From contig CAYIBG010000002.1 in the NCBI GenBank assembly GCA_964361365.1, forward strand, positions 1 to 32,661: DNA of 32,661 nucleotides, read 5' to 3'. This DNA comes from an uncultured Ignavibacteriaceae bacterium. Lineage in GTDB: Bacteria > Bacteroidota > Ignavibacteria > UBA10030. Shown here in pieces: positions 2,466-29,168 of this stretch (positions are counted from its first letter, which is position 1; every line of letters begins with the position of its first letter). A program made the position numbers and the translations under genes. The notes beneath the pieces are model-generated. The model searched no databases and had not been told where the DNA came from. It saw nothing but the letters and a program-made list of their open reading frames with translations.

Positions 2466-2490
2466 CCTCTCAAGAACCAAGGAGGTTTTC

Positions 2491-3096: not shown

Positions 3097-3142
3097 TTGA
3101 TATCGCAAGGAAGATGAAAAATCCGTCAGACAGGAATCATGT

Positions 3143-10637: not shown

Positions 10638-10651
10638 TCGAGGGAAAACCT

Positions 10652-11425: not shown

Positions 11426-11455
11426 TGAGAGATTTCCTCATGATATCAAGGTGAA

Positions 11456-11857: not shown

Positions 11858-11861
11858 TCCA

Positions 11862-12179: not shown

Positions 12180-12189
12180 GGAGGGAACA

Positions 12190-12757: not shown

Positions 12758-13051
12758 ATGAAGAATCAGAAAGGAAGGCCTATGAATCTCGAAAGTTTCA
12801 GGTGCGACCATGCCTGCAGAAACACATGTGCGACCCTTAGTGAGGCGCTCCGTACGGAGACCAAGCTTGTCGAGTTTTACGAACAGATCATGGCAGAGTG
12901 TGATTATCCGGAGATAAGCCGGTTTGTACGTGAACTCGTTGAAGAGCGCCGGAAGTCCATTCTTCGCATCGTGCAAAAGCTCAACGAGATGTATGCGCGG
13001 GGCGAGATCATGGACGGCGTGGGAGCGAGTTTCGACCCCGCAAAACGCTGA
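12758..13051 (+). CDS. Hypothetical helical protein, tightly coupled to the gamma subunit
   Basis: 97 aa. The ATG lies 1 nt after the gamma stop. Cys-rich N-terminus (CDHACRNTC) followed by a helical, ferritin/rubrerythrin-like-looking segment. Weak call. Confidence 0.4.
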   Translation: MKNQKGRPMNLESFRCDHACRNTCATLSEALRTETKLVEFYEQIMAECDYPEISRFVRELVEERRKSILRIVQKLNEMYARGEIMDGVGASFDPAKR

Positions 13052-13254
13052 CCTGCAAACCTCTTCAGATCTGCGGGGCAGGTTTATCCGCGAAGCCATT
13101 ACGCCACTTTCCCAGTTCTGCAAACCATTCCTATCGTCAAGAACGAATTTCAGACAATTCGGTGCAAAACCTCAGAAAATGGCGTTTTTTCACATGGCAC
13201 ACTGTTGGCTAAGAAGGGATCCGATTTGAGTCTTTTCCTTACGGGAGACTTGAA

Positions 13255-13749
13255 ATGAGAAGAATCAAAAAAATCCTGGTTCCGACCGATCTTTCGGAGC
13301 TTTCTTTGGCAGCGATCGACTATGCACGTTCTCTGGCAACCGTCTACGGGGCGAGGGTATTCCTGCTTCATGCTGTCGACGTCGTACCAGTGGTTTCCTT
13401 TCCGACGATCGATTTCACGCTCGAAACGTCCTTGCAGGACGAGACTGAACGGGGAAAGGAGATCCTCGAGAATTTTGCTTCGCGCTTCCTGGGCGACGTT
13501 GACCAAGTCACAGCCGTGGTGCGGCGCGGTTTCGCCTATGAAGAAATCATGAGGTTTGTGGACGAGGAGGAGATTGACCTGATCGTGATGGCAACGCATG
13601 GCCGAACGGGTTTACCGCACATTATTATGGGGAGTGTGGCGGAAAAGGTTGTCCGTCATTCTCCTGTTCCCGTTTTGACGATAAAACCTCCGAAGGTGCA
13701 AGAACAATCCCGGGAACGAGAGCATCCTGCCGTGCTTCACATGCAATGA
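13255..13749 (+). CDS. Universal stress protein (UspA family)
   Basis: 164 aa with the Usp pattern KKILVPTDLSE...DLIVMATHGRTGL..IIMGSVAEKVVRHSPVPVLT. Confidence 0.85.
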   Translation: MRRIKKILVPTDLSELSLAAIDYARSLATVYGARVFLLHAVDVVPVVSFPTIDFTLETSLQDETERGKEILENFASRFLGDVDQVTAVVRRGFAYEEIMRFVDEEEIDLIVMATHGRTGLPHIIMGSVAEKVVRHSPVPVLTIKPPKVQEQSREREHPAVLHMQ

Positions 13750-13773
13750 AGTTTTCACAACGAACGATGAGCC

Positions 13774-14214
13774 ATGAGCATTTTTTTCAGTAAGCAATGC
13801 GAGTACGCCCTGCAGGCAGTTTTGTATCTTGCCTTAAAACCTGCAGGGGAGATGACCTCCATAAAAGACCTCGCAGCGAGTCTCGCGATTCCATACCATT
13901 TCGTCGCGAAGATCCTGCAGGATCTCACACATAAAGGTTTGTTGGCTTCGCAGAAAGGGCCGAATGGCGGGTTCACCCTGGCGATAGAGCCGAAAGAGAT
14001 AACGCTCCTCCATATTGTGGAAGCGATTGATGGAGTCGCATTCACTAACGGATGCGTGCTCGGATTTTCTGAGTGTTCCGGGAAGAACCCTTGTGCCGTC
14101 CACAACCAATGGGGGGAGTTGAGAGAGACCATTTATAGCATGCTCGTAAACAAGAATATGGGTGAGATGGCAAGGGACATGAAGAAACCAGAGTACAACC
14201 TGGCGGCAAGTTAA
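13774..14214 (+). CDS. Rrf2 family transcriptional regulator (three-Cys, Fe-S-type)
   Basis: 146 aa. Rrf2 winged-helix N-terminus (CEYALQAVLYLA) and a Cys triad C-x7-C-x5-C (CVLGFSECSGKNPC). Confidence 0.85.
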   Translation: MSIFFSKQCEYALQAVLYLALKPAGEMTSIKDLAASLAIPYHFVAKILQDLTHKGLLASQKGPNGGFTLAIEPKEITLLHIVEAIDGVAFTNGCVLGFSECSGKNPCAVHNQWGELRETIYSMLVNKNMGEMARDMKKPEYNLAAS

Positions 14215-14239
14215 ACGGTTTTTTTTGGGAATAATTCGG

Positions 14240-15106
14240 ATGAATTTATCTGATTCCTTGCCGGCGCAACAGAAAAAATGGCAAGGGAAGAGTGTAGGGG
14301 AACAGTACCAAGCTATGGCCCTCAAGATTGACGAATCAGAAAAAACTGAGCTCCGGGTGGCCGAATTCTACGACGGTCTTGCTCCTGATTACGATCTCAT
14401 GACAGGGTTTGACAAGAGGTTTGTGCAGGAACGGCCATTCTTCCGGGTTCTCATTGAGAAGTACAAAATCCGGACAGCACTGGACGCCGGGTGCGGCACC
14501 GGGCTTCACTCACTTCTGCTTGCCCGGCTTGGAGTGGACGTCACGGGGGTAGATATTTCCGAGGCTATGATCAAAAAGGTGGATGATCATGCAAAGCACC
14601 TTCAGCTCAAAGTGAAGGTGTTCAAAGAAAGTTTTCGGAACCTGTCTTCAACGCTGAAGGAGCGTTACGACCTGGTGCTTTCAATGGGTAATTCTCTCGC
14701 CCACATTCTCAGCGAAAAAGAAATGGAGGACGTCCTGCGTGGGTTCCGGCATCTTCTGAAATCAAAAGGACTTCTTTACCTTCAAATCCTGAATTATGAG
14801 AAGATCTTGCACATACGAGAACGAATCCAGAGCACAAAAGAAACTTCGGACAAAACCTTTGTTCGATCTTATGACTACGGCGAGAATGAACTGTCATTCA
14901 ATGTCCTCACGCGCACAAAATCGGACGGAGCTTCGAAAGAGTCCGTGAGAACAGTGAGGCTTCACCCGTGGGTACGTCCAGGGCTGTTGAACCTTCTGAA
15001 AAAGGCGGGTTTCGAAAGTATCGCCGTCTACGGAGGGATTACCCTGCAGGCATTCGACGCAAAGACCTCTCAAGATCTCGTGGTGCTCGCCACGTCTCGG
15101 GAGTAG
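14240..15106 (+). CDS. Class I SAM-dependent methyltransferase
   Basis: Motif I is LDAGCGTGLHS, with post-I acidic DVTGVDISE. ATG 14240 is preferred over the track TTG at 14225. Confidence 0.8.
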   Translation: MNLSDSLPAQQKKWQGKSVGEQYQAMALKIDESEKTELRVAEFYDGLAPDYDLMTGFDKRFVQERPFFRVLIEKYKIRTALDAGCGTGLHSLLLARLGVDVTGVDISEAMIKKVDDHAKHLQLKVKVFKESFRNLSSTLKERYDLVLSMGNSLAHILSEKEMEDVLRGFRHLLKSKGLLYLQILNYEKILHIRERIQSTKETSDKTFVRSYDYGENELSFNVLTRTKSDGASKESVRTVRLHPWVRPGLLNLLKKAGFESIAVYGGITLQAFDAKTSQDLVVLATSRE

Positions 15107-15121
15107 AACGAAAAAAAGTGC

Positions 15122-15150
15122 TTGACATGAAATGAACCAGGGATTATATT
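15122..15150 (+). promoter_or_regulatory. Candidate promoter for the second Rrf2 gene and possibly the downstream NXR-like genes
   Basis: TTGACA (15122-15127), an exact 17-nt spacer, then TATATT (15145-15150). The same bases plus TG (15145-15152, TATATTTG) also fit the FCB-group TAnnTTTG element. Confidence 0.45.
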
Positions 15151-15178
15151 TGGATAACCAGGTCTACTTATCTAAATA
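15147..15178. promoter_or_regulatory. Palindromic candidate operator overlapping the -10 element (possible Rrf2 autoregulation site)
   Basis: TATTTGGATAA (15147-15157), a 10-nt spacer, then TTATCTAAATA (15168-15178). 10 of 11 positions are complementary. It ends 2 nt before the GTG start at 15181. Confidence 0.35.
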
Positions 15179-15180
15179 CT

Positions 15181-15627
15181 GTGTCCCTTATCTTTAGTAA
15201 ATCCTGCGAGTACGCACTGCAGGCCTCTCTGTTTCTGGCCAAGCAGCCGAAGGATGAGTTCGTCCTCCTCCGCGAGATCTCAGACAAACTCGATATTCCT
15301 CATCACTTTCTCAGCAAAGTTCTTCAAACGCTCACACGCGCAGATTTCGTGACGTCGTACAAAGGCGCCAAGGGCGGCTTTACGCTTGCCCGGCCGTCGA
15401 AGGATATTTACCTCATGGAAATTGTCCGTGCCATGGACGGCGACAAGTTCCTGGAAGAGTGTGTCCTTGGTTTTCCCGGTTGCAGTGACAGGACTCCCTG
15501 TCCAGTACATCCCCAATGGAAGCGTGCAAAAGAAATTGTCATGAACATGCTTCAGAAAAAAACGCTTGCAGGGCTCAGCAAGGAGCTCGAACCAAAACTT
15601 GACCTTATAGCGCAACTCTCCGCTTGA
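15181..15627 (+). CDS. Rrf2 family transcriptional regulator (three-Cys, Fe-S-type), paralogue of 13774-14214
   Basis: 148 aa with a GTG start. CEYALQASLFLA helix-turn-helix region and Cys triad CVLGFPGCSDRTPC. Lies 59 nt upstream of the molybdoenzyme alpha gene. Confidence 0.85.
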   Translation: MSLIFSKSCEYALQASLFLAKQPKDEFVLLREISDKLDIPHHFLSKVLQTLTRADFVTSYKGAKGGFTLARPSKDIYLMEIVRAMDGDKFLEECVLGFPGCSDRTPCPVHPQWKRAKEIVMNMLQKKTLAGLSKELEPKLDLIAQLSA

Positions 15628-15686
15628 AGAGTTGTCGGCTGTCGCACGGGTCCCTCTGATCCAGAACCTTACAGAAGGAAAGAGCC

Positions 15687-18600
15687 ATGGATAAAATCAA
15701 CCGACGAAATTTTCTCGAGAAATCCGGCAAAGGATTTGTTGGTGGAGCTCTTTTGGGGAGTATGTTCGACCTCCACTTGCTTCAGTTTACTCAAGAAGTG
15801 GACAACCCCCTCGCCTTTTACCCAAATCGAGATTGGGAGAAAGTCTATCGCGACCAGTATCACTATGATCGATCATTCACCTACATCTGCGCTCCGAATG
15901 ATACTCATAATTGCCGGCTGCGAGCATTTGTCCGCAACGGCATCGTCGTGCGGATTGAACAGAATTATGATGCCACGGCCGTTTCAGACATTTACGGAAA
16001 CACAATCCCCCCTTCATGGAATCCACGCGGTTGTTCGAAAGGTTTTACCTACGTTCGCCGAATGTATGGGCCGTACCGTGTAAAATATCCGATGATCAGA
16101 AAGGGATGGAAAGAGTGGGCGGATGGCGGATTTCCAACAGATTCAAAAGGCGTTCCCGACCAGAAATACTTTTTGCGTGGCGAGGACAGTTGGATCAAGA
16201 TAAACTGGGATGACATCTCGACGTACGCAGCGAAAGGCTTGTTGCATGTGATGAAAAAGTATCAAGGAGAGCAAGGGGCCGAAAAGCTGAAAATACAGGG
16301 CTATCCTGAGGAGATGATTGAAGCGATGCACGGGAGCGGTGCACAAGTGCTTAAGATTCGTCCCGGCATGTCGATTCATGGCATTCTTCGCATTCAGGCG
16401 CTGAAGCGATTCGCGAACATGCTCGCATTGCACGACGAGGAAGAAGCAAAGAAGCACCATCGCGACCCGTACGGCGCCCGCTCATGGACGAATTACGATT
16501 GGCATGGTGACTTACCGCCCGGTCACCCGATGGTCACCGGCATTCAAACCCACGACGATGACCACAACAACTTCCGTCACGCCAGACTTTTCATTATGCA
16601 GGGCGTGAACTTTGTCGAAAACAAGATGTCGGACGCCCATTGGTGGATTGAAACCATGGAGCGCGGTGGAAAGATTGTGGTCATAGCCCCGGAGTACGGC
16701 CCTTCCGCGCAAAAAGCCGACTATTGGATTCCCGTTCGGCCGGGAACCGATCCGGCACTGCAGTTGGGCGTTACAAATGTTTTGTTTAAAGAAAAACTGT
16801 ACGACGCACCCTTCGTCAAACGATTCACCGATATGCCTCTCCTGGTTCGCATGGACACCCTGAAACTTCTTCGTGCGTCAGACATTTTCAAAGATTACAA
16901 GAATCAGGAGCTGAAGGGCTATAGTGTTCAAGTGCAAAAGATAGACCCCGAGGCCCGAGAGCGATGGGGCGACTTTGTTGTGTGGGACTCCAAGTCAAAG
17001 AAAACTGTTGCCGTGACAAGAGAGGATGTTGGAAAATATATTGACGAAATGAAGATTGATCCAGCTCTCGAGGGGACTTTTTCCGTGAAAGACATGAAGG
17101 GAAGACAAATCAAAGTTAAATCCGTCTTTCAACTCTATAAAGAGCTTTGCGCTGAATACGACCTGGATGCAACCCATGAGATCACTGGTTCCCCGAAAGA
17201 ACTTATCGTTCGTCTTGCGCGAGATCTTGGAAGCATCAGGCCAGCGGCGGTACACACCGGAGAAGGCGTGAACCACTACTTCCATTGCGATCTGACGACG
17301 CGAGGAACGTTCCTATGGATGGCCCTTACGGGCAATATCGGCAAACCGGGTTCGGGAGTTGGACACTGGGCAGGGAATTACAAGTTTTGCGTGTTCGATG
17401 GTCTTGCGAAATTTAATGGTGAAGATCCATTTAACATGAATCTTGACCCAAACGCAAACGGGAAGGATGTCAAGAGCAAGAAGTACTACAAGCCCGAGAA
17501 TCCGGCGTACTGGAATTACGAGGATCTTCCACTCATTGTGCAAACACAAGAAGGTCGCAAGGTCTTTACCGGGAAAACGCATATGCCCACACCGACGAAA
17601 GTGCAGTGGACTGCGAATGTGAATCTGCTGAACAACGCCAAGTGGGCATACAACATGGCAAAGAATGTGGACCCAAAGGTCGAGATGATCGTGGTCAATG
17701 AGATGGAATGGACTGGGAGCTGTGAGTTTGCTGATATCGTGTTACCCGTGGAGTGTTGGGCAGAACTCACGCTTCCCGATATGACTGCCTCATGCTCGAA
17801 TCCGTTTTTGCAGGCGTGGAAGGGGGGCGTGAAGCCAATTTTCGATAATCGCAACGACGCCTTGATCATGGCAGGAGTTGCTGCGAAGCTTGCCGAGTTG
17901 ACCGGCGATCAGCGCTACCGGGATTATTTCAAATTCATTTTAGAAGGAAAACCAGAGGTATACCTCCAGCGCGTCCTTGATGCCGGCACTACTACCGATG
18001 GCTACAAGATCGATGAACTACTCAAGAAAGATGCTGCGGTGTTGATGATGTTCCGAACCTATCCACGTATTCCAGGCTGGGAGCAAATCAATGAATCGAA
18101 ACCGTTCTATAACAAAACGGGGCGGATTGAATTTTACCGCGAAGAGGACGAGTTCATCGAATACGGCGAAAATCTCATTGTTCACCGCGAACCTGTCGAA
18201 GCGACGCCGTATCTTCCCAACGTCATCGTGGCATCTCATCCAGCGATCCGTCCACACAATTATGATCTTCCTCAGAACCATCCCGGCGCAGATGAGCGCT
18301 CCGTCAATAACGTGAAGATGCCCTGGAGGAAAGTGAAGCAGACACGCAGCTTCCTTTGGCAGCAGGGTTACCGATTCTGGTGCCTCACACCGAAATCACG
18401 GCACACAAATCACTCCTCCTGGGCTGTGACGGATTGGAATTTTATCTGGAACAACAACTTTGGCGACCCGTACCGGGCAGACAAGCGAATGCCCGGTGTG
18501 GGTGAGCATCAAGTCCAGATGAATCCCGATGATGCGAAAGAGCTTGGCATCAACGACGGCGATTATGTCTATGTCGATGCAAATCCTGCGGACCGACCAT

Positions 18601-19103
18601 ACAAAGGATGGAAGCCCAATGATCCCTTCTACAAGGTTTCTCGTTTGATGCTGCGCATGAAATACAATCCTGCATATCCGCGTGGAGTCACCATGATCAA
18701 ACATTCAGCCTTCATGGCGACTCCCAAATCGGTGAAGGCACATGAGACACGCGAGGATGGAAAGGCTGTTTCAGAAGATACCGGATATCAGGCCAGCTTC
18801 CGGTATGGTTCGCAACAAAGTATTACGCGCGGATGGCTTCAGCCAACGATGATGACGGATTCACTTGTGCGCAAGGATGTTATAGGACAGCACATTGGGG
18901 AAGGTTACGAAGAGGATGTCAACTCGCCGAACACTTGTCCCAAGGAAACCATGGTCCGCATCACGAAAGCGGAAGACGGAGGCATGGATGGGAAGGGATT
19001 ATGGGATCCCGTCAAAACACAGCTGACACCGGCTAACGAGAACGAAACGATGAAGAAGTATCTCGGGGGAGAATTCATCGAGAAAGGAACTTCCAATGGC
19101 TGA
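15687..19103 (+). CDS. nxrA: Tat-exported molybdopterin oxidoreductase alpha subunit, type II DMSO-reductase family, NxrA/NarG-like (periplasmic NXR-like clade)
   Basis: 1138 aa with the twin-arginine signal NRRNFLEKSG. N-terminal Fe-S (FS0) motif C68-x3-D72-x3-C76-x39-C116 (15888-16034). NarG-like core blocks (GDLPPGHP, SDAHWW, PEYGP). Confidence 0.85.
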   Translation: MDKINRRNFLEKSGKGFVGGALLGSMFDLHLLQFTQEVDNPLAFYPNRDWEKVYRDQYHYDRSFTYICAPNDTHNCRLRAFVRNGIVVRIEQNYDATAVSDIYGNTIPPSWNPRGCSKGFTYVRRMYGPYRVKYPMIRKGWKEWADGGFPTDSKGVPDQKYFLRGEDSWIKINWDDISTYAAKGLLHVMKKYQGEQGAEKLKIQGYPEEMIEAMHGSGAQVLKIRPGMSIHGILRIQALKRFANMLALHDEEEAKKHHRDPYGARSWTNYDWHGDLPPGHPMVTGIQTHDDDHNNFRHARLFIMQGVNFVENKMSDAHWWIETMERGGKIVVIAPEYGPSAQKADYWIPVRPGTDPALQLGVTNVLFKEKLYDAPFVKRFTDMPLLVRMDTLKLLRASDIFKDYKNQELKGYSVQVQKIDPEARERWGDFVVWDSKSKKTVAVTREDVGKYIDEMKIDPALEGTFSVKDMKGRQIKVKSVFQLYKELCAEYDLDATHEITGSPKELIVRLARDLGSIRPAAVHTGEGVNHYFHCDLTTRGTFLWMALTGNIGKPGSGVGHWAGNYKFCVFDGLAKFNGEDPFNMNLDPNANGKDVKSKKYYKPENPAYWNYEDLPLIVQTQEGRKVFTGKTHMPTPTKVQWTANVNLLNNAKWAYNMAKNVDPKVEMIVVNEMEWTGSCEFADIVLPVECWAELTLPDMTASCSNPFLQAWKGGVKPIFDNRNDALIMAGVAAKLAELTGDQRYRDYFKFILEGKPEVYLQRVLDAGTTTDGYKIDELLKKDAAVLMMFRTYPRIPGWEQINESKPFYNKTGRIEFYREEDEFIEYGENLIVHREPVEATPYLPNVIVASHPAIRPHNYDLPQNHPGADERSVNNVKMPWRKVKQTRSFLWQQGYRFWCLTPKSRHTNHSSWAVTDWNFIWNNNFGDPYRADKRMPGVGEHQVQMNPDDAKELGINDGDYVYVDANPADRPYKGWKPNDPFYKVSRLMLRMKYNPAYPRGVTMIKHSAFMATPKSVKAHETREDGKAVSEDTGYQASFRYGSQQSITRGWLQPTMMTDSLVRKDVIGQHIGEGYEEDVNSPNTCPKETMVRITKAEDGGMDGKGLWDPVKTQLTPANENETMKKYLGGEFIEKGTSNG

Positions 19104-19356
19104 GCCCGATGATTCGCAAAACCCAACGGATTTCGAACTCACACATTATGTCGTACCCGGCGATGTTGGAAGGGATCACGCGGCAGAAATGGCGGAAACG
19201 TTCGTCATCGAACTGAAACGGCTGCGATGGTCGAATGAGAGAATCCTGGATGCCTTTCGAAATCCTTTTTATGCGGGTCCCCATTATGCTCTGAAAGAGC
19301 GAGGGGAACAATATGTCCGTGATTTGGTCGAAAGTGTCAAAAACAGGAAATCCTAA
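19096..19356 (+). CDS. Hypothetical 86-aa protein between the alpha and beta genes
   Basis: The ATG overlaps the alpha gene end by 8 nt. Balanced, non-repetitive composition. It fills an otherwise 276-nt gap. No family recognised. Confidence 0.45.
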   Translation: MAEPDDSQNPTDFELTHYVVPGDVGRDHAAEMAETFVIELKRLRWSNERILDAFRNPFYAGPHYALKERGEQYVRDLVESVKNRKS

Positions 19357-19379
19357 GCTGCCCTTAAGGAGAACCACGT

Positions 19380-20552
19380 ATGCCTAAAGTCTACAATTGG
19401 CAATTAGGTCGTGAAATGGAGTATCCCTACGAGGGAAAACGACCAAAGAGACAGTTTGCGGCCGTGTTCAATATTAACCGCTGCATTGGATGCCAAACTT
19501 GCACGATGGCGTGCAAGAGTACCTGGACCTATTCTAAGGGACAGGAAGCAATGTGGTGGAATAACGTTGAGACGAAACCTTACGGCGGATATCCGCAAAG
19601 TTGGGACGTGAAAACATTGGAGCTTCTCGGGCCACAACCCGGTTGGGATACCGTTAAGGCCGACTCTGAAAAGCCATACGGTGTTTATCGAGGTGAAACT
19701 CTCTTCGAGGCCGCAACAACGAGGGCCACCGGGAGCGGTGAACGGGCACTTGGTTATCTTCCCACGGAAAAGGAATGGCGCTCACCGAACTTCTACGAGG
19801 ACACTGCTTACTCGACGCTTGCATCCAAAGAGGGCCGCACCGCTGACGGCACAAAGCTCCCCGAACACAAAGCTTGGTTTTTTTATTTGCAGCGCATTTG
19901 CAACCATTGTTCGTATCCGGCGTGTCTGGCCGCTTGTCCACGCGGCGCAATTTATAAACGGCCTGAAGATGGAATCGTGCTTATCGACCAAAGCCAATGT
20001 CGGGGCTATCGGAAGTGCGTGGAGCAATGTCCATACAAGAAACCGATGTTTAACTCCGAGACACGGATTTCGGAGAAATGCATAGCCTGTTATCCGCGAG
20101 GAGAAGGTTCCGACCCGCTCACCGAGGGTGAGCCAATGGTCACGCGATGTGTAGCATCCTGCGTCGGGAAAATCCGCCTGCAGGGTTGGATCGACGATCC
20201 GGAGAGTCCCATACATTATCTTGTCCACAAAGCAAAGGTAGCGCTTCCACTTTACCCCCAGTTTGGTACAGAACCCAACATCTACTACATCCCTCCTCGA
20301 TGGGCTCCACGAGCGTACTTGAAACAGATGTTTGGTCCTGGCGTTGACCACGCTCTTACAGAATACGCAAATCCCACGCACGAACTCCTCGGAGTGCTGC
20401 AACTGTTTGGAGCAAGTCAAAACCTTGTTTATAGCTATCGAGTAGACGGAGACGAGGTTGTCGGGTTCGGAAAGCGAAGACAGGAAGTTGTGCGGGTTCC
20501 CATCGAAGATCCCGTGATCGTTCGCTCCGAAAAGCATTTGAATGTGACGTGA
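19380..20552 (+). CDS. nxrB: Molybdoenzyme beta subunit (four Fe-S clusters), NxrB/NarH-like
   Basis: 390 aa with an AAGGAGAA RBS. Cys motifs CIGCQTCTMAC, CNHCSYPACLAACP, CRGYRKCVEQCP and CIACYPR. No signal peptide, so probably exported by hitch-hiking on the Tat-signal-bearing alpha subunit. The N-terminus MPKVYNWQLGR resembles Nitrospira-type NxrB as I recall it. Confidence 0.9.
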   Translation: MPKVYNWQLGREMEYPYEGKRPKRQFAAVFNINRCIGCQTCTMACKSTWTYSKGQEAMWWNNVETKPYGGYPQSWDVKTLELLGPQPGWDTVKADSEKPYGVYRGETLFEAATTRATGSGERALGYLPTEKEWRSPNFYEDTAYSTLASKEGRTADGTKLPEHKAWFFYLQRICNHCSYPACLAACPRGAIYKRPEDGIVLIDQSQCRGYRKCVEQCPYKKPMFNSETRISEKCIACYPRGEGSDPLTEGEPMVTRCVASCVGKIRLQGWIDDPESPIHYLVHKAKVALPLYPQFGTEPNIYYIPPRWAPRAYLKQMFGPGVDHALTEYANPTHELLGVLQLFGASQNLVYSYRVDGDEVVGFGKRRQEVVRVPIEDPVIVRSEKHLNVT

Positions 20553-20599
20553 AAGGAATTCCTGAGACGGTCACCATCGTCCCAAGGAGGGAGAATGAT

Positions 20600-22324
20600 A
20601 TGAAATCCTTATTGATAGTTGTGATCCTTGGCCTCGGATTGTTCGCGATGGGTTTTCGACCCTGGCCAGCGTTTAACCAAGACACTTCTGCTTCGGCTGA
20701 AAATGGAAAAACTCTCTATCTCAAATATTGCACCACATGCCATGGTGTCGATGGAACCGGAGAGGGAACTGCCACTGTCTATCTTTTTCCCAAGCCCCGG
20801 GACTTCACAAAAGGCATTTTCAAGTTCCAGTCAACTCCGTCAGGTTCTCTCCCAACAGACGGAGATCTCGAGCGAACAATCCGCAACGGGATGCCTGGTT
20901 CAGCCATGCCGGCATGGGATGGGTTGTCCGCCGGGGAACGCAAAGATCTTATTTCCTACGTCAAAACTTTTTCAGAGCGATTCAGAACCAACAAACCTTC
21001 TGACCCTTTGGAAATTGAAAAGGAGCCTCAATCAACGCCTGAAATGCTCCGAAACGGCAAGGCAGTGTTCGCGTTGGCAGGCTGCTGGATGTGTCACGGA
21101 AAGAATGGCGCGGGTGATGGTCCGTCTTCCAAAAACATGACGGATGATCTGGGGCGGCCAACACCGCCTTATAATTTTACGAGGGCCGGCGCGTTCAAAG
21201 GCGGCGGAACACCTCAGGACATCTATCGCACGTTTAGCACCGGCATTGGCGGAACTCCGATGCCAGGGTATGGTGAAGATGCCCTCGCCGTTGGGAGGGA
21301 AAGTTTTGGTGATTTGACGAACCTGGAAGGGTATTATACCTCCAACGAAGTCCGAGAGTTTAAGGAGTTCATTTCTCAATGGCCAAAAGAAGAACACCTG
21401 AGCCGCATGAGTCTGGCCGAACGGAAACAACTGGCGGATGATCGTCGGTGGTCCCTTGTCTCCTATGTTCTCTCTCTGTCGAAGTCGGGTAAAACACAAA
21501 TATCGTATACAACCACCGATCATTTGTTAACCAGTGCGACGACAGATGATGTTTCGAAGTTTGGCGATCCTTTTTCCCAGCGCTGGAACGCTGTCAAAGG
21601 CGAAGAACTTTCTTTGATCTCATTGTGGCAAAGAGATACTCCAACAGACCGTGTGAATGTCCAAAGCGTGACAGACGGCAAATCTATCGCGTTTCGGCTT
21701 GAGTGGGAAGACAGTACTCAGGATGACCAAGCGTTGCATGATGCAACATTTGGAGACGCAGCAGCTATTCAATTTCCCCTCAATCCGTCAAGCCAGCCGT
21801 TCTTCGGCATGGGCGACACAAACTTTGCTGTCAATATCTGGCAGTGGAAAAGCTGGTGGGAGGCCGATTCAAAGAAGTACGCAGGTGTGAACAGCGCCTT
21901 TCCCCGTAATGCGACTGATTTCTATCTTTACGATGTTTCAGGCGGTTCTCGAATGGAATACCTTGTGAGCAAAGATTCCGCGAGAATGCTTTCGATACCT
22001 TGGAATGCCGGATGGAGTTCGGGGAATCTTCTCAGTGCGCAATCCAGAAGATCTTCTGTCGAAGACTTGAACGCCAAAGGATTTGGGACGCTTCGTTCTC
22101 AAGGGCCCGCTGGACAAAATGTTGGAGGTAATGGCGTGTGGAAAAATGGGAAGTGGGTGGCTGTTTTCACAAGGTCTCTCGCTTCGCAAGATTTGAACGA
22201 TGTTCCTTTAACATCAAGGAACACGATTCCCGTTGCGTTCGCGGTGTGGGATGGATTTCTCGGTGACCGTAATGGCCAAAAGATGGTGACCAATTGGTAC
22301 ACGCTTAACATTGGGCCAAAATGA
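20600..22324 (+). CDS. Gamma-like subunit: Sec signal + dihaem cytochrome c + EbdC/NxrC-type haem-b (EB_dh) domain fusion
   Basis: ATG 20600 follows an AAGGAGGG RBS and gives the signal peptide MKSLLIVVILGLGLFAMG. CxxCH motifs at 20729-20743 (CTTCH) and 21083-21097 (CWMCH), with MPA/MPG Met-ligand contexts. The C-terminal half has the EB_dh-like pattern (AFRLEWED, DAAAIQFP, FFGMGD, NIWQWKS). Confidence 0.8.
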   Translation: MKSLLIVVILGLGLFAMGFRPWPAFNQDTSASAENGKTLYLKYCTTCHGVDGTGEGTATVYLFPKPRDFTKGIFKFQSTPSGSLPTDGDLERTIRNGMPGSAMPAWDGLSAGERKDLISYVKTFSERFRTNKPSDPLEIEKEPQSTPEMLRNGKAVFALAGCWMCHGKNGAGDGPSSKNMTDDLGRPTPPYNFTRAGAFKGGGTPQDIYRTFSTGIGGTPMPGYGEDALAVGRESFGDLTNLEGYYTSNEVREFKEFISQWPKEEHLSRMSLAERKQLADDRRWSLVSYVLSLSKSGKTQISYTTTDHLLTSATTDDVSKFGDPFSQRWNAVKGEELSLISLWQRDTPTDRVNVQSVTDGKSIAFRLEWEDSTQDDQALHDATFGDAAAIQFPLNPSSQPFFGMGDTNFAVNIWQWKSWWEADSKKYAGVNSAFPRNATDFYLYDVSGGSRMEYLVSKDSARMLSIPWNAGWSSGNLLSAQSRRSSVEDLNAKGFGTLRSQGPAGQNVGGNGVWKNGKWVAVFTRSLASQDLNDVPLTSRNTIPVAFAVWDGFLGDRNGQKMVTNWYTLNIGPK

Positions 22325-22334
22325 GAGGACAACG

Positions 22335-23117
22335 ATGAATACGATATCAGCTGACACGAAAGCGTTGAACGCCGAAGTGCGGGCTCAGATATACAAGATT
22401 CTCGCGAAGTCATTTCTCTATCCGACGAAGGATTTCTTCGATTCTATCGGGACACAGGAATACACCCAGGCGTTGTTGTGTTATTGCTCGTTGAATTCTT
22501 CTTCTTCGGAACTCCAAGCCACGATTCAGGCTGTATGTGAGATGCTCAAAAGTGGGGAGCAGGGGCCGACTCCAGGAACTCTCGAATATGAGTACAATCG
22601 CCTTTTTGCCCATCTTGGCTCGGCGAAATGTCCTCCTTATGAAACCGAATACGGCTATGATAATGTCTTTCAGAAGACTCAGACGATGGCAGATATTGCG
22701 GGGTTTTACAAGGCATACGGTCTGGAAGTTTCAGATACCAATGCAGAACGAGTAGACTTTTTGGGCACGGAGTTGGAGTTCATGGCTTTTCTTTCGCTTC
22801 AGGAGGCGTACGCCAGAGAGCAGGGGGAACATGAGCACATTGAAATCTGTGTTGATACCCAGCGCAAGTTCATGAAAGATCATCTCGGCCGATGGACAGG
22901 GATCTTTACGAAGATTCTCGCGAGAACGACAGAAGAGAAATTTTATGAAAATGCAGGGAAGCAACTGGAAGAGTTCGTCGGAAACGAGCTGGGGCGTCTG
23001 AACGTGTTCCCGGAAGAAGTGACGGCGCCGAGTAAAGAACCACCCGCGAGCCAGGAACCGTTTGGCTGTGAAGGATGCGTGTCTCCCACTTCCGCGGGAT
23101 CCACGGAAAAGTCATGA
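22335..23117 (+). CDS. TorD/NarJ/DmsD-family redox-enzyme maturation chaperone
   Basis: ATG 22335 with a GAGAGGA RBS. TorD-family pattern (YNRLF...PPYETEY, ELEFMAFL). The position after the structural genes mirrors narJ and nxrD. Confidence 0.8.
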   Translation: MNTISADTKALNAEVRAQIYKILAKSFLYPTKDFFDSIGTQEYTQALLCYCSLNSSSSELQATIQAVCEMLKSGEQGPTPGTLEYEYNRLFAHLGSAKCPPYETEYGYDNVFQKTQTMADIAGFYKAYGLEVSDTNAERVDFLGTELEFMAFLSLQEAYAREQGEHEHIEICVDTQRKFMKDHLGRWTGIFTKILARTTEEKFYENAGKQLEEFVGNELGRLNVFPEEVTAPSKEPPASQEPFGCEGCVSPTSAGSTEKS

Positions 23118-23165
23118 CGATGATCGCCCCCAAAAAGGCGCAACAGAGCCACTTCAAGGAAACGA

Positions 23166-23831
23166 ATGAACAATAATGACAGCAAAAACCTCGAACAGAT
23201 GCTCGCGGATTCAGCAAAGCAGCATCACCATCTTTGCCCGCGGCAAGTGCTGGGTGTGCGGATGGGCATAATGGCGGGAAAGATTCTGCAGCTCAATCTG
23301 CCACAAATTGACAAAAGACTGCTGACGATTGTCGAAACCGACGGCTGCATGGTCGATGGTGTTTCGGCGGCCACAAACTGCACCGTGGGGCACAGGACAC
23401 TGCGAGTCGAGGATGAGGGGAAAGTCGCCGCCACCTTTGTCGATACGGTCACAAAGCGGGCGATCCGAATCGCTCCTCGTGCTGGAATTCGCCGTGTGAC
23501 CCAAGAGTATGCCTCAGCCGATTGTTCCCGCTGGGAAGCACAGTTGAAAGGTTACCAACGAATGCCGGACGATGATTTGTTCATTGTGAAGGATGTCGAG
23601 CTCATGTTTTCACTCGAGAAACTCATCAGCCGGAAAGAAAAAAAAGCCATTTGCCAAAGATGTGAGGAAGAGATCAATAACGAGCGGGAAATCACGTCGG
23701 GTGAAACGGTCCTTTGTCGCTCCTGTGTGGGGCAAGGGTATTATCGGCGGCCCACTCAGAGCGACGAGAATGAAACTTTGCGCGATGCCCTCATGACAAG
23801 GACGGGAAGCCAATCGTTCCTCTCCTCATGA
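23166..23831 (+). CDS. FmdE-like domain protein with C-terminal zinc ribbon
   Basis: 221 aa. FmdE-type pattern (HHLCPRQVLGVRMG, ETDGCMVDGVSAATNCTVGHRTL) plus CQRC...CRSC. Confidence 0.7.
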   Translation: MNNNDSKNLEQMLADSAKQHHHLCPRQVLGVRMGIMAGKILQLNLPQIDKRLLTIVETDGCMVDGVSAATNCTVGHRTLRVEDEGKVAATFVDTVTKRAIRIAPRAGIRRVTQEYASADCSRWEAQLKGYQRMPDDDLFIVKDVELMFSLEKLISRKEKKAICQRCEEEINNEREITSGETVLCRSCVGQGYYRRPTQSDENETLRDALMTRTGSQSFLSS

Positions 23832-24080
23832 GTTGCAGTGCAGTCCTCCTCATTCTGCCAATAGCACGAAGTGCCCAAATCCCTGTAAGCTGCACTTTAC
23901 CGTCAACGGTTCTCTCTTCCCAAAAATGAAAAAAGCAGGCAGGCTCAGTTTCCCAGAGATAGGAACAGACTGCTTAAAAGGGCCAGCAAAGGCCAATTCT
24001 CGCCTATAAAATAAGATAAAAAACTCCGATTTCTGGTACAAGATTTGCCGTGCGTTCGGCGCATACGCTATCCATCCACC

Positions 24081-25982
24081 ATGTCTTCGCGCTATAAGAT
24101 CAAAATACCCGACATCGAATTTTGGAAAAGCCTCGTTCCATGCCAGATGGGTTGTCCTATCCACACAGACGCTGGGAGGTATGTTCAGCTGATTGCTGAG
24201 CAGAAGTACAAGGAAGCCTACCTCACCGCCCGGTCGCCCAACCCGTTTGCGAGTGTCTGTGGACGCGTGTGCGCAGCCCCGTGCGAAGACTGGTGTCGAC
24301 GCGGAAAGATCGACGCTCCGGTGAGCATTCGGGCGCTCAAGAGATTTGTCACAGAGAAGTATGGAGTCGAGTCACTCGACCCCGATGCACAGGATCAACT
24401 CTTCCAGGGAGCCGATGAGCCGGGTAACAAATGGCTCTGGCATCTCCCGATGCAAGTACAATCACAGAAAAACGTCGCAAAGAACGAGAAGGTTGCAGTC
24501 GTTGGGTCGGGTCCCGCCGGTTTGTCGTGCGCGCATGACCTGGCTTTGATGGGATACAAGGTGACGATGTTTGAGGCGACCAATGTCGCGGGCGGCATGT
24601 TAAGGCATGGCATCCCCGAGTATCGTCTTTCACGATCCCTCATCGACAAAGAAATCGAGAAGATCACGTCGCTGGGAGTCGAAATCCGCTACAACAAACC
24701 TCTGACTGAACGGTTTGGCATCAAAGACCTTCGCAAGGAAGGGTTCGAGGCCGTCTTCATCTCTGTCGGGACTCAAAAAGGGCGCGACCTGGCAATTGAA
24801 GGAGCGGACCTCGACGGCGTTGTCAAGGCGATTGATTATCTCATCAACATCAACAACGGGTATCGAGTTGACGTCGGAAAGCGAGTGCTGATTATCGGCG
24901 GTGGCTTTGTCGCGTTTGATGCTGCGCGGATGGCTCTCAGAGGCAGTCCGGAAGCTCAGCCGGCGGACATACACGAGGCCGTGGATGTAGCCCGAACAGT
25001 CAAGCGCAAAGGCGCCGAAGAAGTTCATATCGCAAGCCTGGAATCGTTCGAGGAAATGCCCGTCCTTCGCACGTCGCAGGGTCATGAAGAGTTTGAGGAA
25101 GCAAAGAAAGAAGGCGTGGTTTTCCACCCACAACGGGGGCCCAAGCGAATTCTCGGACAAAGCGGCAAAGTCAGAGGAATCGAGTTCATCGGTGTCAAGC
25201 ACACGTATGACGAGAACGGCAAATTCAATCCAGTCTATGATCCCTCGTTCACGGAAACGCTGGATGTCGATTCGGTCATCCTTGCCATCGGCCAACAAAC
25301 GGATCTTTCGTTCATCAAAAAAACAGACGAAATCGAACTTACGCCGGGCAAGCTCATTAAAATCGATCCCACGACGCTCGCCACATCGGCCGGGGGAATC
25401 TTTGCCGGCGGCGACGCAGCCTTTGGACCGAGAAACATTATTGACTCTGTAGCGAACGGGAAGCGTGCGGCTCTTTCTGTCGACGAATTCCTGAGAAGGA
25501 AAAAACCTGAAACATACTACCACCTTTCCATTGAAAAAATCCCAACCTCACGATTTACGCGTCCTGAAGATTTCGAACAACACGAACGGCAAGCCCCGCC
25601 CACCATCGATCTCAATCGGAGAACGGGCATTTCCGAAGTCGAGCAGGGATACACCGAAGAGCAAGCGCGAAGACAGGCTGAACGATGTCTGTCGTGCCAT
25701 GTGCAAACGATCTACGATGCGGAAAAGTGCGTGATGTGCAACAGGTGCGTTGACGTGTGTCCTGAGTACTGTCTGCAACTTGTTCCGTTCGCAGAACTCG
25801 ACGTCGACGAGAAAACCAAGGGACAATTGCTTGAACAGTACAGTGTCGACCCGCTCCGGCCTGCCTCAGCGATGATCAAAGACGACGAAACGTGCATTCG
25901 CTGCGGCCTTTGTGCTCTGCGATGCCCGACGGATGCGATGACAATGGAAGTGTTCTATTACGAACAACGAGAAGCAGTTTGA
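24081..25982 (+). CDS. GltD/NfnB-like NAD(P)H-dependent flavo-iron-sulfur oxidoreductase with C-terminal 2x[4Fe-4S] ferredoxin domain
   Basis: 633 aa from ATG 24081. N-terminal Cys clusters (CQMGCP, CGRVCAAPCEDWC). Two Rossmann motifs (VAVVGSGPAGLSCA, VLIIGGGFVAFDAA). C-terminal CVMCNRCVDVCP and CIRCGLCALRCP. No signal peptide or TM helix. The stop lies 14 nt before the Rieske gene. Confidence 0.8.
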   Translation: MSSRYKIKIPDIEFWKSLVPCQMGCPIHTDAGRYVQLIAEQKYKEAYLTARSPNPFASVCGRVCAAPCEDWCRRGKIDAPVSIRALKRFVTEKYGVESLDPDAQDQLFQGADEPGNKWLWHLPMQVQSQKNVAKNEKVAVVGSGPAGLSCAHDLALMGYKVTMFEATNVAGGMLRHGIPEYRLSRSLIDKEIEKITSLGVEIRYNKPLTERFGIKDLRKEGFEAVFISVGTQKGRDLAIEGADLDGVVKAIDYLININNGYRVDVGKRVLIIGGGFVAFDAARMALRGSPEAQPADIHEAVDVARTVKRKGAEEVHIASLESFEEMPVLRTSQGHEEFEEAKKEGVVFHPQRGPKRILGQSGKVRGIEFIGVKHTYDENGKFNPVYDPSFTETLDVDSVILAIGQQTDLSFIKKTDEIELTPGKLIKIDPTTLATSAGGIFAGGDAAFGPRNIIDSVANGKRAALSVDEFLRRKKPETYYHLSIEKIPTSRFTRPEDFEQHERQAPPTIDLNRRTGISEVEQGYTEEQARRQAERCLSCHVQTIYDAEKCVMCNRCVDVCPEYCLQLVPFAELDVDEKTKGQLLEQYSVDPLRPASAMIKDDETCIRCGLCALRCPTDAMTMEVFYYEQREAV

Positions 25983-25996
25983 ACGAAAGGTTATCC

Positions 25997-26536
25997 ATGA
26001 AACTCCTGGAAAACAAGAAGGAAAAATTTTTGGGGAAAGGTTCAGAAAACCGCAGAACTTTTCTTCAGAAACTGGGACTGGGCGGATTACTTGCCGGACT
26101 CACCGGGTTCGCCTATCAGTCCGTGCGGTCGCTAATTCCGAATGTTCTTTATGAAGCGCCGCAGAAATTTAAGGTGGGTCTGCCGGCTCAGCTTGCGGAT
26201 GGTGTGACGTTCCTGGAAGACCGCCGGCTCTACGTCTTCAAAGAGGGTAAATCCTTTTATGCGATTTCCGGAGCCTGCACACACCTCGGCTGCACGGTGA
26301 AGTACACAAAACTGAATAGTCCCAAGCACGTGGAAATCGGCGATGAAAAGAAGGCCATCAATTTTGAATTTCAGTGTCCCTGCCACGGGTCGAAGTTTTA
26401 TGCCGAGGGGACAAATTATGCAGGGCCGGCTCCGCGGCCGCTCTATTGGTACAAACTTGAGGTCTCGCCCGACGACGGTCAGCTGGTCGTCAACCTGGGT
26501 GAAGAAGTGGAACAGAATTTTCGTTTAACCGTGTAG
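25997..26536 (+). CDS. Rieske [2Fe-2S] subunit of a cytochrome bc-type complex
   Basis: ATG 25997. Twin-arginine and TM region NRRTFLQKLGLGGLLAGL. Rieske boxes CTHLGC and CPCHGS. Confidence 0.85.
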   Translation: MKLLENKKEKFLGKGSENRRTFLQKLGLGGLLAGLTGFAYQSVRSLIPNVLYEAPQKFKVGLPAQLADGVTFLEDRRLYVFKEGKSFYAISGACTHLGCTVKYTKLNSPKHVEIGDEKKAINFEFQCPCHGSKFYAEGTNYAGPAPRPLYWYKLEVSPDDGQLVVNLGEEVEQNFRLTV

Positions 26537-26546
26537 GAGCCGTCTG

Positions 26547-27872
26547 ATGGAAATCCTCGAATTAACGAAGCGGGTCTACAACAAGCTTACCTGGACATGG
26601 AATCCCGGCAGTGAAAAAGAAGCCGGGGATGCGATCGTCAAGAATCTGCTCCTCCACTGGTTTCCGAACAAGATTTCAAAGGAGAGCCTATCGTGGAAGT
26701 ATTCCATGTGGTTAGGAACCATCTCTTTCGTGTTGTTCGGCATTCTCACCGTCACGGGCGTCGTCCTCATGTTTCTGTATGTCCCGTCCGTTGAGAGGGC
26801 ATATTCATCAGTAAAAGACATCGAATTCGTCGTGTCGTTCGGCTGGCTCTTACGAGCGATGCATCGGATCTCTGCGCATCTCATGGTGGCCGTCGTGTTC
26901 CTCCACATGGTTCGAGTGTTCTTGACGGGAGCATACAAGAAAGGCGTTGCGGTCGGCTCCAATCGTCCGATGAATTGGATTGTTGGCCTCATCCTGCTCA
27001 TTATGACACTTCTGTTGTCTTTCACGGGATACTTGTTGCCGTGGGATCAACTGGCATACTGGGCCATCACGGTGGGCACCAACATCGCGAGTGCCGCGCC
27101 GGTTATCGGCGAGTGGATTCGTTTTATCCTACTGGGGGGAACGATGATCGATCAAAACGCTTTGATACGATTTTATGTTCTGCATGTCTTCTTCCTGCCG
27201 ATGATCGTTGTGTTCCTGTTTTCGTACCACATGTGGCGTGTTCGAAAAGATGGTGGACTCGCCGTAGCAGACCGGCTCGCACAGGATGAAAAAGTCCAGG
27301 AAGTCAAACCCGTCAAAACTAAAACCTTCTCGCTGCTCGGCATTACCAATGGAACAAGTGTTCATGTCCGATCGCTGGCGATTGATGAAGAAAAGAATTC
27401 CGTGTCATCTGCCCCGAATCTGCTGAGGAGAATTTGGATCGTCACGCTCGTGACCTTTCTCGCCGTTTTTGTCCTGTCGTTTATCTTCCGGGCGCCGCTC
27501 GAAGCTCCGGCGAATCCTTCGGTGACGCCGAACCCGGCAAAAGCGCCGTGGTATTTTTTGTGGCTGCAGGAACTCGTGACGATCACCACGCTCAAGGTCG
27601 GCTCGTTCACCATCAACGGCGCACTCATCGGAGGCATCATCCTTCCGGCAGTGTTGCTCGGCCTTGGAATCTGGTGGCCGTACCGGGACCGCTCGGACCT
27701 GAATACAGTCGGCATCTGGTTCGCACATGAACGTCGTAAGCAAAACTACATCTTTCTCGCAATCTGCCTCTTCATTATTGTGCTTACGATCGTCGGTACG
27801 TTCCTGAGAGGCCCTTACTGGAACTTCTACTGGCCGTGGGAACAGTGGCCAACGATGCCGGTGAAATTCTGA
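26547..27872 (+). CDS. Cytochrome b (fused b6-like and subunit IV-like halves)
   Basis: 441 aa, multi-TM. Haem-ligand His pairs (RAMHRISAHLM; VLHVFF...SYHMW). The Qo-site motif reads APWY (27543-27554). Confidence 0.85.
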   Translation: MEILELTKRVYNKLTWTWNPGSEKEAGDAIVKNLLLHWFPNKISKESLSWKYSMWLGTISFVLFGILTVTGVVLMFLYVPSVERAYSSVKDIEFVVSFGWLLRAMHRISAHLMVAVVFLHMVRVFLTGAYKKGVAVGSNRPMNWIVGLILLIMTLLLSFTGYLLPWDQLAYWAITVGTNIASAAPVIGEWIRFILLGGTMIDQNALIRFYVLHVFFLPMIVVFLFSYHMWRVRKDGGLAVADRLAQDEKVQEVKPVKTKTFSLLGITNGTSVHVRSLAIDEEKNSVSSAPNLLRRIWIVTLVTFLAVFVLSFIFRAPLEAPANPSVTPNPAKAPWYFLWLQELVTITTLKVGSFTINGALIGGIILPAVLLGLGIWWPYRDRSDLNTVGIWFAHERRKQNYIFLAICLFIIVLTIVGTFLRGPYWNFYWPWEQWPTMPVKF

Positions 27873-27897
27873 TGTACCTTTGAGAGGACGAGAATCA

Positions 27898-29121: not shown

Positions 29122-29168
29122 ATTACCCGGGACGATCCGGAAATCACAATCACAAAAGGAGGTTCTAT

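Follow-up and report, generated by a model that had tools for sequence, protein, structure and literature searches.

The closest described relatives of the system reported here are the periplasmic nitrite oxidoreductases (NXRs), whose Kuenenia representative holds the iron-sulfur cluster FS0 of its alpha subunit through three Cys residues and Asp71, as its structure shows (PMC8387239). The purified Kuenenia enzyme is bidirectional, with nitrate reduction at 1.5 and nitrite oxidation at 0.061 umol/min/mg, rates that were obtained with different artificial redox partners. A substrate-coordinating Asn is common to NXR and nitrate reductase (NAR), the latter reported to be without nitrite-oxidizing activity, and in ethylbenzene dehydrogenase this residue is replaced by Ile. 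NXR-like clusters have also been published from metagenome-assembled genomes (MAGs) of non-nitrifying Armatimonadota, Chloroflexota, Proteobacteria, Nitrososphaerales and others, where the same question of catalytic direction arises, and the locus that we describe here is a further cluster of this already published sort in a heterotroph. It lies in a stretch of 32,661 nucleotides (hereafter the window; contig CAYIBG010000002.1, assembly GCA_964361365.1) from an uncultured Ignavibacteriaceae bacterium of the phylum Bacteroidota, in which an earlier note, made from the sequence alone, had described positions 15687-23831 as a periplasmic NXR-like molybdoenzyme cluster and had left its substrate and direction open, in our judgement rightly. 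We assign a probability of about 0.55 to the reading that this cluster encodes a periplasmic NXR-family nitrate/nitrite oxidoreductase, exported by the twin-arginine translocation (Tat) pathway, that runs as a respiratory nitrate reductase in this host. NXR genes serve as markers of nitrification in metagenomic surveys, and for this locus such an inference is probably wrong.

The alpha subunit and its place in the NXR family

Every gene of the region is carried by the + strand in our list of open reading frames (ORFs), and the features that bear on the identity of the alpha subunit are as follows.

15687-19103, + strand: alpha, an NxrA-like bis-molybdopterin guanine dinucleotide molybdoenzyme of 1138 aa (7b04_B match; Pfam Molybdopterin)
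15702-15722, + strand: twin-arginine motif RRNFLEK, residues 6-12 of alpha (sequence reading; alignment to the Tat region of Kuenenia NxrA)
15888-16034, + strand: FS0 [4Fe-4S] motif C68-x3-D72-x3-C76-x39-C116 (alignment to Kuenenia NxrA)
15897-15899, + strand: Asn71 of alpha, substrate-coordinating, inside the FS0 motif (aligns with N70 of Kuenenia NxrA)
16509-16511, + strand: Asp275 of alpha, predicted molybdenum ligand in a WHGD motif (aligns with Asp275 of Kuenenia NxrA)

In HMMER comparisons, alpha matches Kuenenia NxrA (chain 7b04_B of PDB 7B04) over residues 3-1132 with 1421 bits (E = 0), as against 241 bits for the next best type II enzyme, PcrA, 186 for EbdA and 155 for NarG, the last of these in fragments. 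The length of 1138 aa, the twin-arginine signal and the FS0 motif agree exactly, in coordinates and in residues, with the reading of the earlier note: RRNFLEK precedes a hydrophobic stretch, CAPNDTHNC occupies residues 68-76, and the codon of C116 lies at nucleotides 16032-16034. The note's proposal that an Asp stands at an FS0 ligand position is borne out by the alignment, in which C68, D72, C76 and C116 of alpha fall on C67, D71, C75 and C115 of Kuenenia NxrA, D72 being opposite the Asp71 ligand of the solved enzyme (PMC8387239). Asn71 and Asp275 of alpha align with the substrate-coordinating Asn70 and the molybdenum ligand Asp275 of the same protein, and both residues are invariant across an alignment of 14 diverse family sequences. 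Full-length homology, cofactor ligands and export signal, as read from the sequence, show alpha to be an NXR-family enzyme.

No NCBIfam cutoff is passed by alpha: its best model, the type II subfamily TIGR03479, gives 398.6 against a cutoff of 984.75, and the NarG model TIGR01580 gives 174.6 against 1084, while P0175, a genuine TIGR03479-group member of the same tree, scores 1145. These figures bear on the proposal that the enzyme acts on another substrate, be it chlorate, perchlorate, selenate, dimethyl sulfide or a hydrocarbon. A soluble alpha-beta-gamma-delta architecture with an EB_dh gamma subunit is common to the Pcr, Clr, Ser, Ddh and Ebd enzymes, and promiscuity towards oxyanions is frequent among type II enzymes. 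Such a substrate is nonetheless highly improbable here, given how far PcrA and EbdA score below NxrA, the shortfall against the TIGR03479 cutoff, the retention of the Asn that coordinates substrate in NAR and NXR, and the absence of a chlorite dismutase gene among the window ORFs scanned; perchlorate, ethylbenzene and similar substrates were rejected on the scores and the conserved Asn.

With one genome per GTDB species scanned, an alpha relative turned up in at least 596 species genomes. The nearest relatives come from an Ignavibacteriaceae MAG (89% identity, partial sequence) and a Bacteroidota MAG (85%); identity to alpha is 55-56% for anammox sequences and 52-55% for those of Nitrospira and Nitrospina, Nitrospira standing at about 52%. 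Positions 16614-21362 of the window share 97-98.6% DNA identity with contigs L082-L085 (Hain_H41 samples and two other runs; related loci are cited here by L numbers), and these near-identical Hain_H41 contigs make a groundwater population of this lineage, probably of one species with them, the most likely source. To place alpha, neighbour-joining (NJ) trees were calculated from MAFFT alignments with Kimura-corrected distances and bootstrapped with 50 and 30 replicates. E. coli NarG alone served as root in one tree, and in the other intermediate outgroups were added, for which only the full-length members returned by an exhaustive 50%-identity representative search (mostly fragments) were used. 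The two trees are concordant. In them the periplasmic NXR family is monophyletic with a bootstrap of 100 and contains the window alpha, which belongs to a group of 13 taxa (clade W, bootstrap 100) that is sister, with a bootstrap of 90, to a 75-taxon clade (bootstrap 100) holding every sampled Nitrospira, Nitrospinota and anammox sequence. The earlier note's call of a periplasmic NXR-type alpha is thus upheld at the level of the family. Its alignment with the Nitrospira and anammox enzymes in particular calls for a qualification, as in these NJ trees alpha lies outside the clade bounded by the proven nitrite-oxidizing and anammox enzymes and is sister to it. Alpha inside the family and Asp72 on the FS0 ligand position are the opposite of the two outcomes that the note had named beforehand as speaking against it.

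Clade W comprises sequences from Ignavibacteria/Bacteroidota, Dehalococcoidia, Thermoplasmata, one Brocadiales-labelled MAG, one alphaproteobacterial MAG and the Symbiobacteriaceae, the last including two cultured species, Caldinitratiruptor microaerophilus and Symbiobacterium terraclitae; of the 13 sampled members of the clade, none is named after a known nitrite-oxidizing lineage. C. microaerophilus was isolated for its nitrate-reducing activity, and S. terraclitae is, we presume, a nitrate reducer as well. The former (L089) has a complete small-alpha-beta-TorD-gamma cluster behind genes for a dCache sensor kinase and a response regulator, and our literature search returned no papers tying Caldinitratiruptor to NXR. 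The FS0 Asp, which the earlier note had taken as a mark of the Nitrospira and Kuenenia type, is present in the window as described; in 15 of 80 related loci, however, the position equivalent to Asp72 is a Cys (C-x3-C-x3-C; L006, L007, L014, L020, L035, L040, L041, L046, L050, L057, L061, L063, L064, L070 and L076). Symbiobacteriaceae members of clade W are among these loci, so that the cluster with three Cys and one Asp is a lineage-specific trait, variable even inside clade W, rather than a hallmark of the family.

Partner subunits and accessory proteins

Downstream of alpha, the cluster continues with five genes, three of which (the 86-aa ORF, the TorD/NarJ-like chaperone and the FmdE-like protein) had not been listed by the earlier note.

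19096-19356, + strand: conserved 86-aa protein, encoded between the alpha and beta genes (61 of 80 related loci have a homologue)
19380-20552, + strand: beta, NxrB-like, 390 aa (7b04_A match; Pfam Fer4_11)
20600-22324, + strand: gamma, 574 aa from ATG 20600, in an ORF that opens at GTG 20549 (Pfam Cytochrom_C, EB_dh)
22311-23117, + strand: TorD/NarJ-type maturation chaperone, with an alternative ATG at 22335 (Pfam Nitrate_red_del, 1.7e-24)
23166-23831, + strand: FmdE-like protein (Pfam FmdE, 1.8e-28)

Beta matches Kuenenia NxrB (7b04_A) with 576 bits (E 3e-172), begins MPKVYNWQLGR, in accordance with the MP.VYNWQLGR start that had been reported for it, and contains 15 Cys residues grouped 4-4-3-4, a pattern that fits three [4Fe-4S] clusters and one [3Fe-4S] cluster. 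For gamma, the probable start is the ATG at 20600 behind an AGGAGG site, which gives a protein of 574 aa in agreement with a 574-aa gene call in a relative. The protein has a hydrophobic segment at its N-terminus, continues with a dihaem cytochrome c domain and ends in an EB_dh/NxrC-like haem-b domain. Residues 50-243 match chain 6h5l_B (E 1.9e-55), deposited in PDB 6H5L as a 'conserved hypothetical cytochrome protein', and two CxxCH motifs lie at 20729-20743 and 21083-21097. Residues 369-588 match Kuenenia NxrC (7b04_C; 112 bits, E 2.5e-31), with Met421 (21809-21811) and Lys578 (22280-22282) aligned to the haem-b ligands Met155 and Lys305. The description of gamma as a soluble haem-b protein of the EbdC/NxrC type therefore holds for its NxrC-like domain and fails to cover the dihaem c domain and the hydrophobic N-terminus. 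Most family loci have a gamma of 520-600 aa in which two CxxCH motifs are combined with an EB_dh domain, its gene usually lying just upstream of alpha; loci of Chloroflexota, Symbiobacteriaceae, Actinomycetota and Thermoplasmata have haem-b-only gammas instead. The 'alternative NxrC' of Nitrospina combines one to three haem c sites with a haem-b domain (PMC3578206), and since the same build has been described there the gamma fusion is not new.

As the earlier note had said, no NarI-like membrane subunit was found: a NarI-type protein (Pfam Nitrate_red_gam) is absent from the 30 larger + strand ORFs of the window that were scanned with Pfam, a set that left outside an 88-aa ferredoxin-like ORF (9295-9561) and a 170-aa ORF (8783-9295). 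The Tat motif of alpha, together with the c-type haems and hydrophobic N-terminus of gamma, places the enzyme, as far as its sequence tells, outside the cytoplasm. The chaperone matches the NCBIfam model DMSO_red_II_cha at 6e-26, below the cutoff. The FmdE-like protein ends in a C-terminal CxxC...CxxC motif resembling a zinc ribbon and is a probable accessory factor; FmdE homologues adjoin NXR-like clusters in L039, L040, L048, L050 and L070, which come from unrelated phyla, and in the closest Ignavibacteria relatives (L086 and L088) a HEAT-repeat protein follows TorD in place of FmdE.

The 86-aa ORF begins 8 nt before the end of alpha, overlapping its stop, and finishes 23 nt ahead of beta. 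When the ORFs of all 80 related loci were searched iteratively with a profile, homologues were recovered in 61 loci, across many phyla and at lengths of about 85-130 aa (for example L017:13456-13788 and L022:14169-14453), nearly always between alpha and beta and, in Symbiobacteriaceae, just upstream of alpha; the same search found none in seven anammox and four Nitrospira loci. The signature of the family is MA..F.EEF.R.G...LF.NPFY.G.H..Y..GE..VR, and the proteins contain neither Cys nor a signal peptide. No family in Pfam (E up to 10) or NCBIfam matches the 86-aa protein, a word-indexed homologue search returned 10 close relatives only, all named 'hypothetical', and the four-helix core of its AlphaFold2 model (pLDDT above 90 at residues 28-80) has no PDB match by Foldseek. 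Membership of a NapD-like, TorD-like or other known family was rejected on these Pfam, NCBIfam and Foldseek results. For L001, a single gene spanning alpha and the small ORF was rejected, as a stop codon lies between the two. The likeliest role for the protein is that of a cytoplasmic maturation or Tat-proofreading helper, or of a small co-exported subunit.

Gene neighbourhood, electron route and direction of catalysis

The genes on either side of the cluster that we consider in weighing its direction are the following.

13774-14214, + strand: Rrf2-family regulator, paralogue a, with a Cx7Cx5C Cys triad (Pfam Rrf2, 3.5e-31)
14225-15106, + strand: S-adenosylmethionine-dependent methyltransferase, between the two Rrf2 genes (Pfam Methyltransf_25, Methyltransf_11)
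15181-15627, + strand: Rrf2-family regulator, paralogue b, adjoining alpha on its upstream side and likewise with a Cx7Cx5C Cys triad (Pfam Rrf2, 1.9e-31)
24045-25982, + strand: GltD-like NAD(P)/FAD protein with extra FeS domains (Pfam, NCBIfam)
25892-26536, + strand: Tat-Rieske protein (Pfam/NCBIfam domains; PDB relatives)
26547-27872, + strand: fused cytochrome b6/subunit-IV-like protein (Pfam, NCBIfam)
27880-29121, + strand: pentahaem cytochrome c (five CxxCH motifs)
29169-31028, + strand: NosZ, Sec-dependent clade II (NCBIfam TIGR04246)

Among NCBIfam models, both Rrf2 paralogues pass the cutoff of the Rrf2 superfamily model only, the IscR and NsrR models staying below theirs, and an NsrR identity was rejected on this ground. 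An Rrf2 gene also stands directly upstream of alpha in L001, L002, L004, L074, L078, L086 and L088, a recurrence that spans several phyla and includes loci of Chloroflexota and Planctomycetota. The methyltransferase occurs at the same position in L088 and L002, and its membership of the system is uncertain. In the Ignavibacteriales MAG locus L088 the order of the window is repeated from POR-gamma (POR, 2-oxoacid:ferredoxin oxidoreductase) through Usp, Rrf2, methyltransferase, Rrf2, alpha, small ORF, beta and gamma to TorD, after which come the HEAT-repeat gene, moaA, mobA and the same GltD-Rieske-cytochrome b module (L088:17222-20045). In L001 and L086 the cluster ends after TorD or the HEAT-repeat gene, without that module. 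Rieske and/or cytochrome b genes are found near NXR-like clusters in L041, L051 and L055, and the clade W flanks of L001, L004, L005, L006 and L016, viewed as ORF listings without a Pfam scan, contain no obvious further nitrogen-cycle genes. A scan of 13000-29300 for promoters and terminators gave counts no higher than in shuffled sequence, so that only the spacing of the genes supports the operon boundaries; scanned with Rfam and for tRNAs, the window gave no matches, and no molybdenum cofactor riboswitch.

Far upstream of the cluster, a gap of about 680 nt without an ORF of at least 80 aa (2466-3142) contains a short hydrophobic ORF of 75 aa (2491-2718) as well as an inverted repeat with perfect arms of 13 nt (2971-2983/3084-3096), and neither Rfam nor tRNA models match in this gap. 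The upstream genes are heterotrophic housekeeping genes, encoding 2-oxoacid:ferredoxin oxidoreductase, malic enzyme, alanine dehydrogenase and acetyl-CoA transferase. The oxidoreductase genes (9295-12756) run in the order delta-like ferredoxin, alpha, beta, gamma, and two ORFs without a family, at 11456-11857 (apparently membrane-bound) and 11802-12179, split POR beta from gamma; in L088, too, a pair of unannotated ORFs directly precedes POR-gamma.

Between the NXR-like cluster and NosZ, positions 24045-29121 form a candidate electron-supply module. Its Rieske protein has as best PDB matches Kuste4569 (9rk4, E 4e-21) and Kustd1480 (9rk3, E 4e-19), the next match being at 6e-12. Kuste4569 and Kustd1480 are the Rieske subunits of two NAD(P)-oxidoreductase-containing Rieske/cytochrome b complexes of Kuenenia, for which a bifurcation of electrons from quinol to NAD(P)+ and to an acceptor of high potential has been proposed (PMC12954380). 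NosZ scores 913 bits against the TIGR04246 cutoff of 625, which assigns it to the Sec-dependent clade II; the pentahaem cytochrome c gene lies directly before it and genes for two membrane proteins (to 32550), one of them YwiC-like, come after it, and the remaining nos cluster presumably lies beyond the window edge.

As to substrate, catalytic direction, electron route and regulation, we infer a nitrate-reducing system, which the neighbours (Rrf2, Rieske/cytochrome b and NosZ) favour moderately. Electrons of the quinol pool would leave through the neighbouring Rieske/cytochrome b complex and the pentahaem cytochrome c, pass from there to the dihaem c domain of gamma, its haem b and the five FeS clusters, and at the molybdenum site would reduce periplasmic nitrate to nitrite. 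The Rieske/cytochrome b module could feed the adjacent NosZ too, and expression is probably controlled by the Rrf2-type FeS regulators. We favour nitrate reduction because clade W, with no known nitrite oxidizer, includes a nitrate-reducing isolate, because a quinol-oxidizing Rieske/cytochrome b module next to NosZ could serve both periplasmic reductases by way of c-type haems, because FeS-type Rrf2 regulators recur upstream, and because the surrounding metabolism looks heterotrophic.

Alternatively, the enzyme could be a true nitrite oxidoreductase that works in the oxidative direction, with electrons moving from molybdenum through the FeS chain, haem b and the haem c of gamma to cytochromes c, either soluble or in the membrane, and on to a terminal oxidase, or else being pushed uphill by way of the NAD(P)-linked Rieske/cytochrome b complex, to the benefit of a heterotroph that would gain supplementary energy, reductant or nitrite detoxification. 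Every catalytic and cofactor feature does match an enzyme that oxidizes nitrite in vivo, the haem-c 'alternative NxrC' of Nitrospina has been proposed as the exit for nitrite electrons (PMC3578206), and the Rieske/cytochrome b module is similar to the anammox complexes for which NAD(P)H formation has been proposed (PMC12954380). On the other side, the sampled clade W lacks a known nitrite oxidizer and its sole physiologically documented member is a nitrate reducer, neither a terminal oxidase nor carbon-fixation genes occur within the window, the cluster adjoins NosZ, a reductive respiratory enzyme, and other NXR-carrying heterotrophs, missing autotrophy genes, have been judged in the literature to be unlikely oxidizers. 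Taken together, these points leave oxidation a serious candidate, though a rather doubtful one. Use in both directions according to redox state, with nitrate reduced under donor-rich, anoxic conditions and nitrite oxidized when oxygen or another high-potential sink is at hand, would draw on the in vitro reversibility of the NXR family, on the citation of Nitrospira NXR as an alternative nitrate reductase and on the redox- or NO-type Rrf2 regulators upstream of alpha. It would require two sets of redox partners, however, where one candidate set is visible in the window, and we consider it improbable.

Several points weigh against respiratory nitrate reduction and keep our estimate for it modest. 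Catalytic direction is not readable from sequence, and how NXRs control it is unclear according to the structural work itself (PMC8387239); the Met/Lys haem-b ligation and the Asp-ligated FS0 are common to the enzyme that oxidizes nitrite in vivo. C. microaerophilus may have other nitrate reductases. L001, the closest genome locus, is without Rieske/cytochrome b and NosZ neighbours, so their linkage is not universal, and no nitrite reductase is encoded within the window. The trees are NJ trees with 30-50 bootstrap replicates rather than maximum-likelihood trees.

A bolder combination can be drawn from the same genes: the clade W enzyme would oxidize nitrite here, the adjacent NAD(P)-linked Rieske/cytochrome b complex would couple nitrate/nitrite (and N2O) chemistry to NAD(P)H by electron bifurcation, and the 86-aa protein would be an unrecognized component of non-canonical NXRs. 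We regard this as distinctly improbable, a long shot whose truth would mean a nitrite-oxidizing or nitrite-cycling energy metabolism in Bacteroidota. To our knowledge, this phylum has no known nitrite oxidizer, and we know of no discussion so far of NAD(P)-oxidoreductase-containing Rieske/cytochrome b complexes outside anammox bacteria.

For the respiratory nitrate reductase that we favour, the wider meaning lies in the combination of a complete, apparently intact NXR-type enzyme with a neighbouring N2O reductase in a heterotroph, the clade of the enzyme, sister to that of the proven oxidizers, having a nitrate reducer as its sole physiologically described member. If clade W enzymes are cytochrome c-fed periplasmic nitrate reductases, many 'nxr' counts from groundwater, soil and reactors would stand for consumption of nitrate, not production, and the cultured hosts C. 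microaerophilus and S. terraclitae open the question of NXR direction to experiment. Specialists may also find use in two by-products: the small protein, widely conserved, whose gene separates alpha from beta, and the occurrence in a bacterium that is not anammox of an NAD(P)-linked Rieske/cytochrome b module resembling those of anammox bacteria.

Comparison with known systems

NarGHI of E. coli (PDB 1Q16) belongs to the same superfamily branch as the window enzyme and shares with it the nitrate/nitrite couple, the Asp molybdenum ligand, the substrate Asn, five FeS clusters and a chaperone of the NarJ/TorD type. Unlike the predicted periplasmic alpha of the window, NarG faces the cytoplasm; its FS0 is bound by His and three Cys, whereas the first ligand of the window alpha is Cys and the second Asp, and NarGHI uses the membrane dihaem-b quinol oxidase NarI, a counterpart of which is missing among the Pfam-scanned ORFs. 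Closer in overall design are the soluble type II enzymes (PcrABCD, EbdABCD, SerABC and DdhABC), which have in common with the window a periplasmic alpha-beta-gamma build in which gamma is an EB_dh protein with haem b, a chaperone (delta) and the exchange of electrons with c-type cytochromes. They differ in the FS0 motif, the window alpha is about 200 aa longer, and all four window proteins stay below the type II cutoffs (TIGR03477-03479 and TIGR03482), with scores of 286 against 481 for beta, 123 against 170 for gamma and 92 against 152 for the chaperone, next to the 398.6 against 984.75 of alpha.

The Rieske/cytochrome b module, for its part, has the same parts by domains as the Kuenenia complexes Kuste4569-4574 and Kustd1480-1485 (PMC12954380), namely an NAD(P)/FAD/FeS subunit and a Rieske protein together with a cytochrome b of the b6/subunit-IV type and a cytochrome c that carries several haems, the match to a solved relative being that of the Rieske subunit. 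In contrast to those complexes, the window module has no HAO-like octahaem subunit, belongs to a non-anammox host and adjoins an NXR-like cluster and NosZ.

The NXRs of Nitrospira and Nitrospina (Lucker et al. 2010, 2013, PMC3578206) resemble the window enzyme in being periplasmic and in having an Asp-containing FS0. The architecture of the Nitrospina 'alternative NxrC' is that of the window gamma, the haem-c form being here the operon's own gamma, and those hosts, unlike what the window suggests of its own, are chemolithoautotrophic nitrite oxidizers. NxrABC of Kuenenia stuttgartiensis (PDB 7B04; Chicano et al. 2021, PMC8387239) differs in host, the window coming from a bacterium that is not anammox, in the absence of the dihaem c domain to which the window gamma is fused, and in gene order, which is gamma-beta-TorD-...-alpha in anammox loci and alpha-small-beta-gamma-TorD in the window. 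It is homologous to the window proteins over the full length of all three subunits, and common to both are the Tat signal of alpha, an FS0 with three Cys and Asp, the substrate Asn, the Asp molybdenum ligand, the Cys pattern of beta, a haem b with Met/Lys ligation and a TorD-like chaperone within the cluster.

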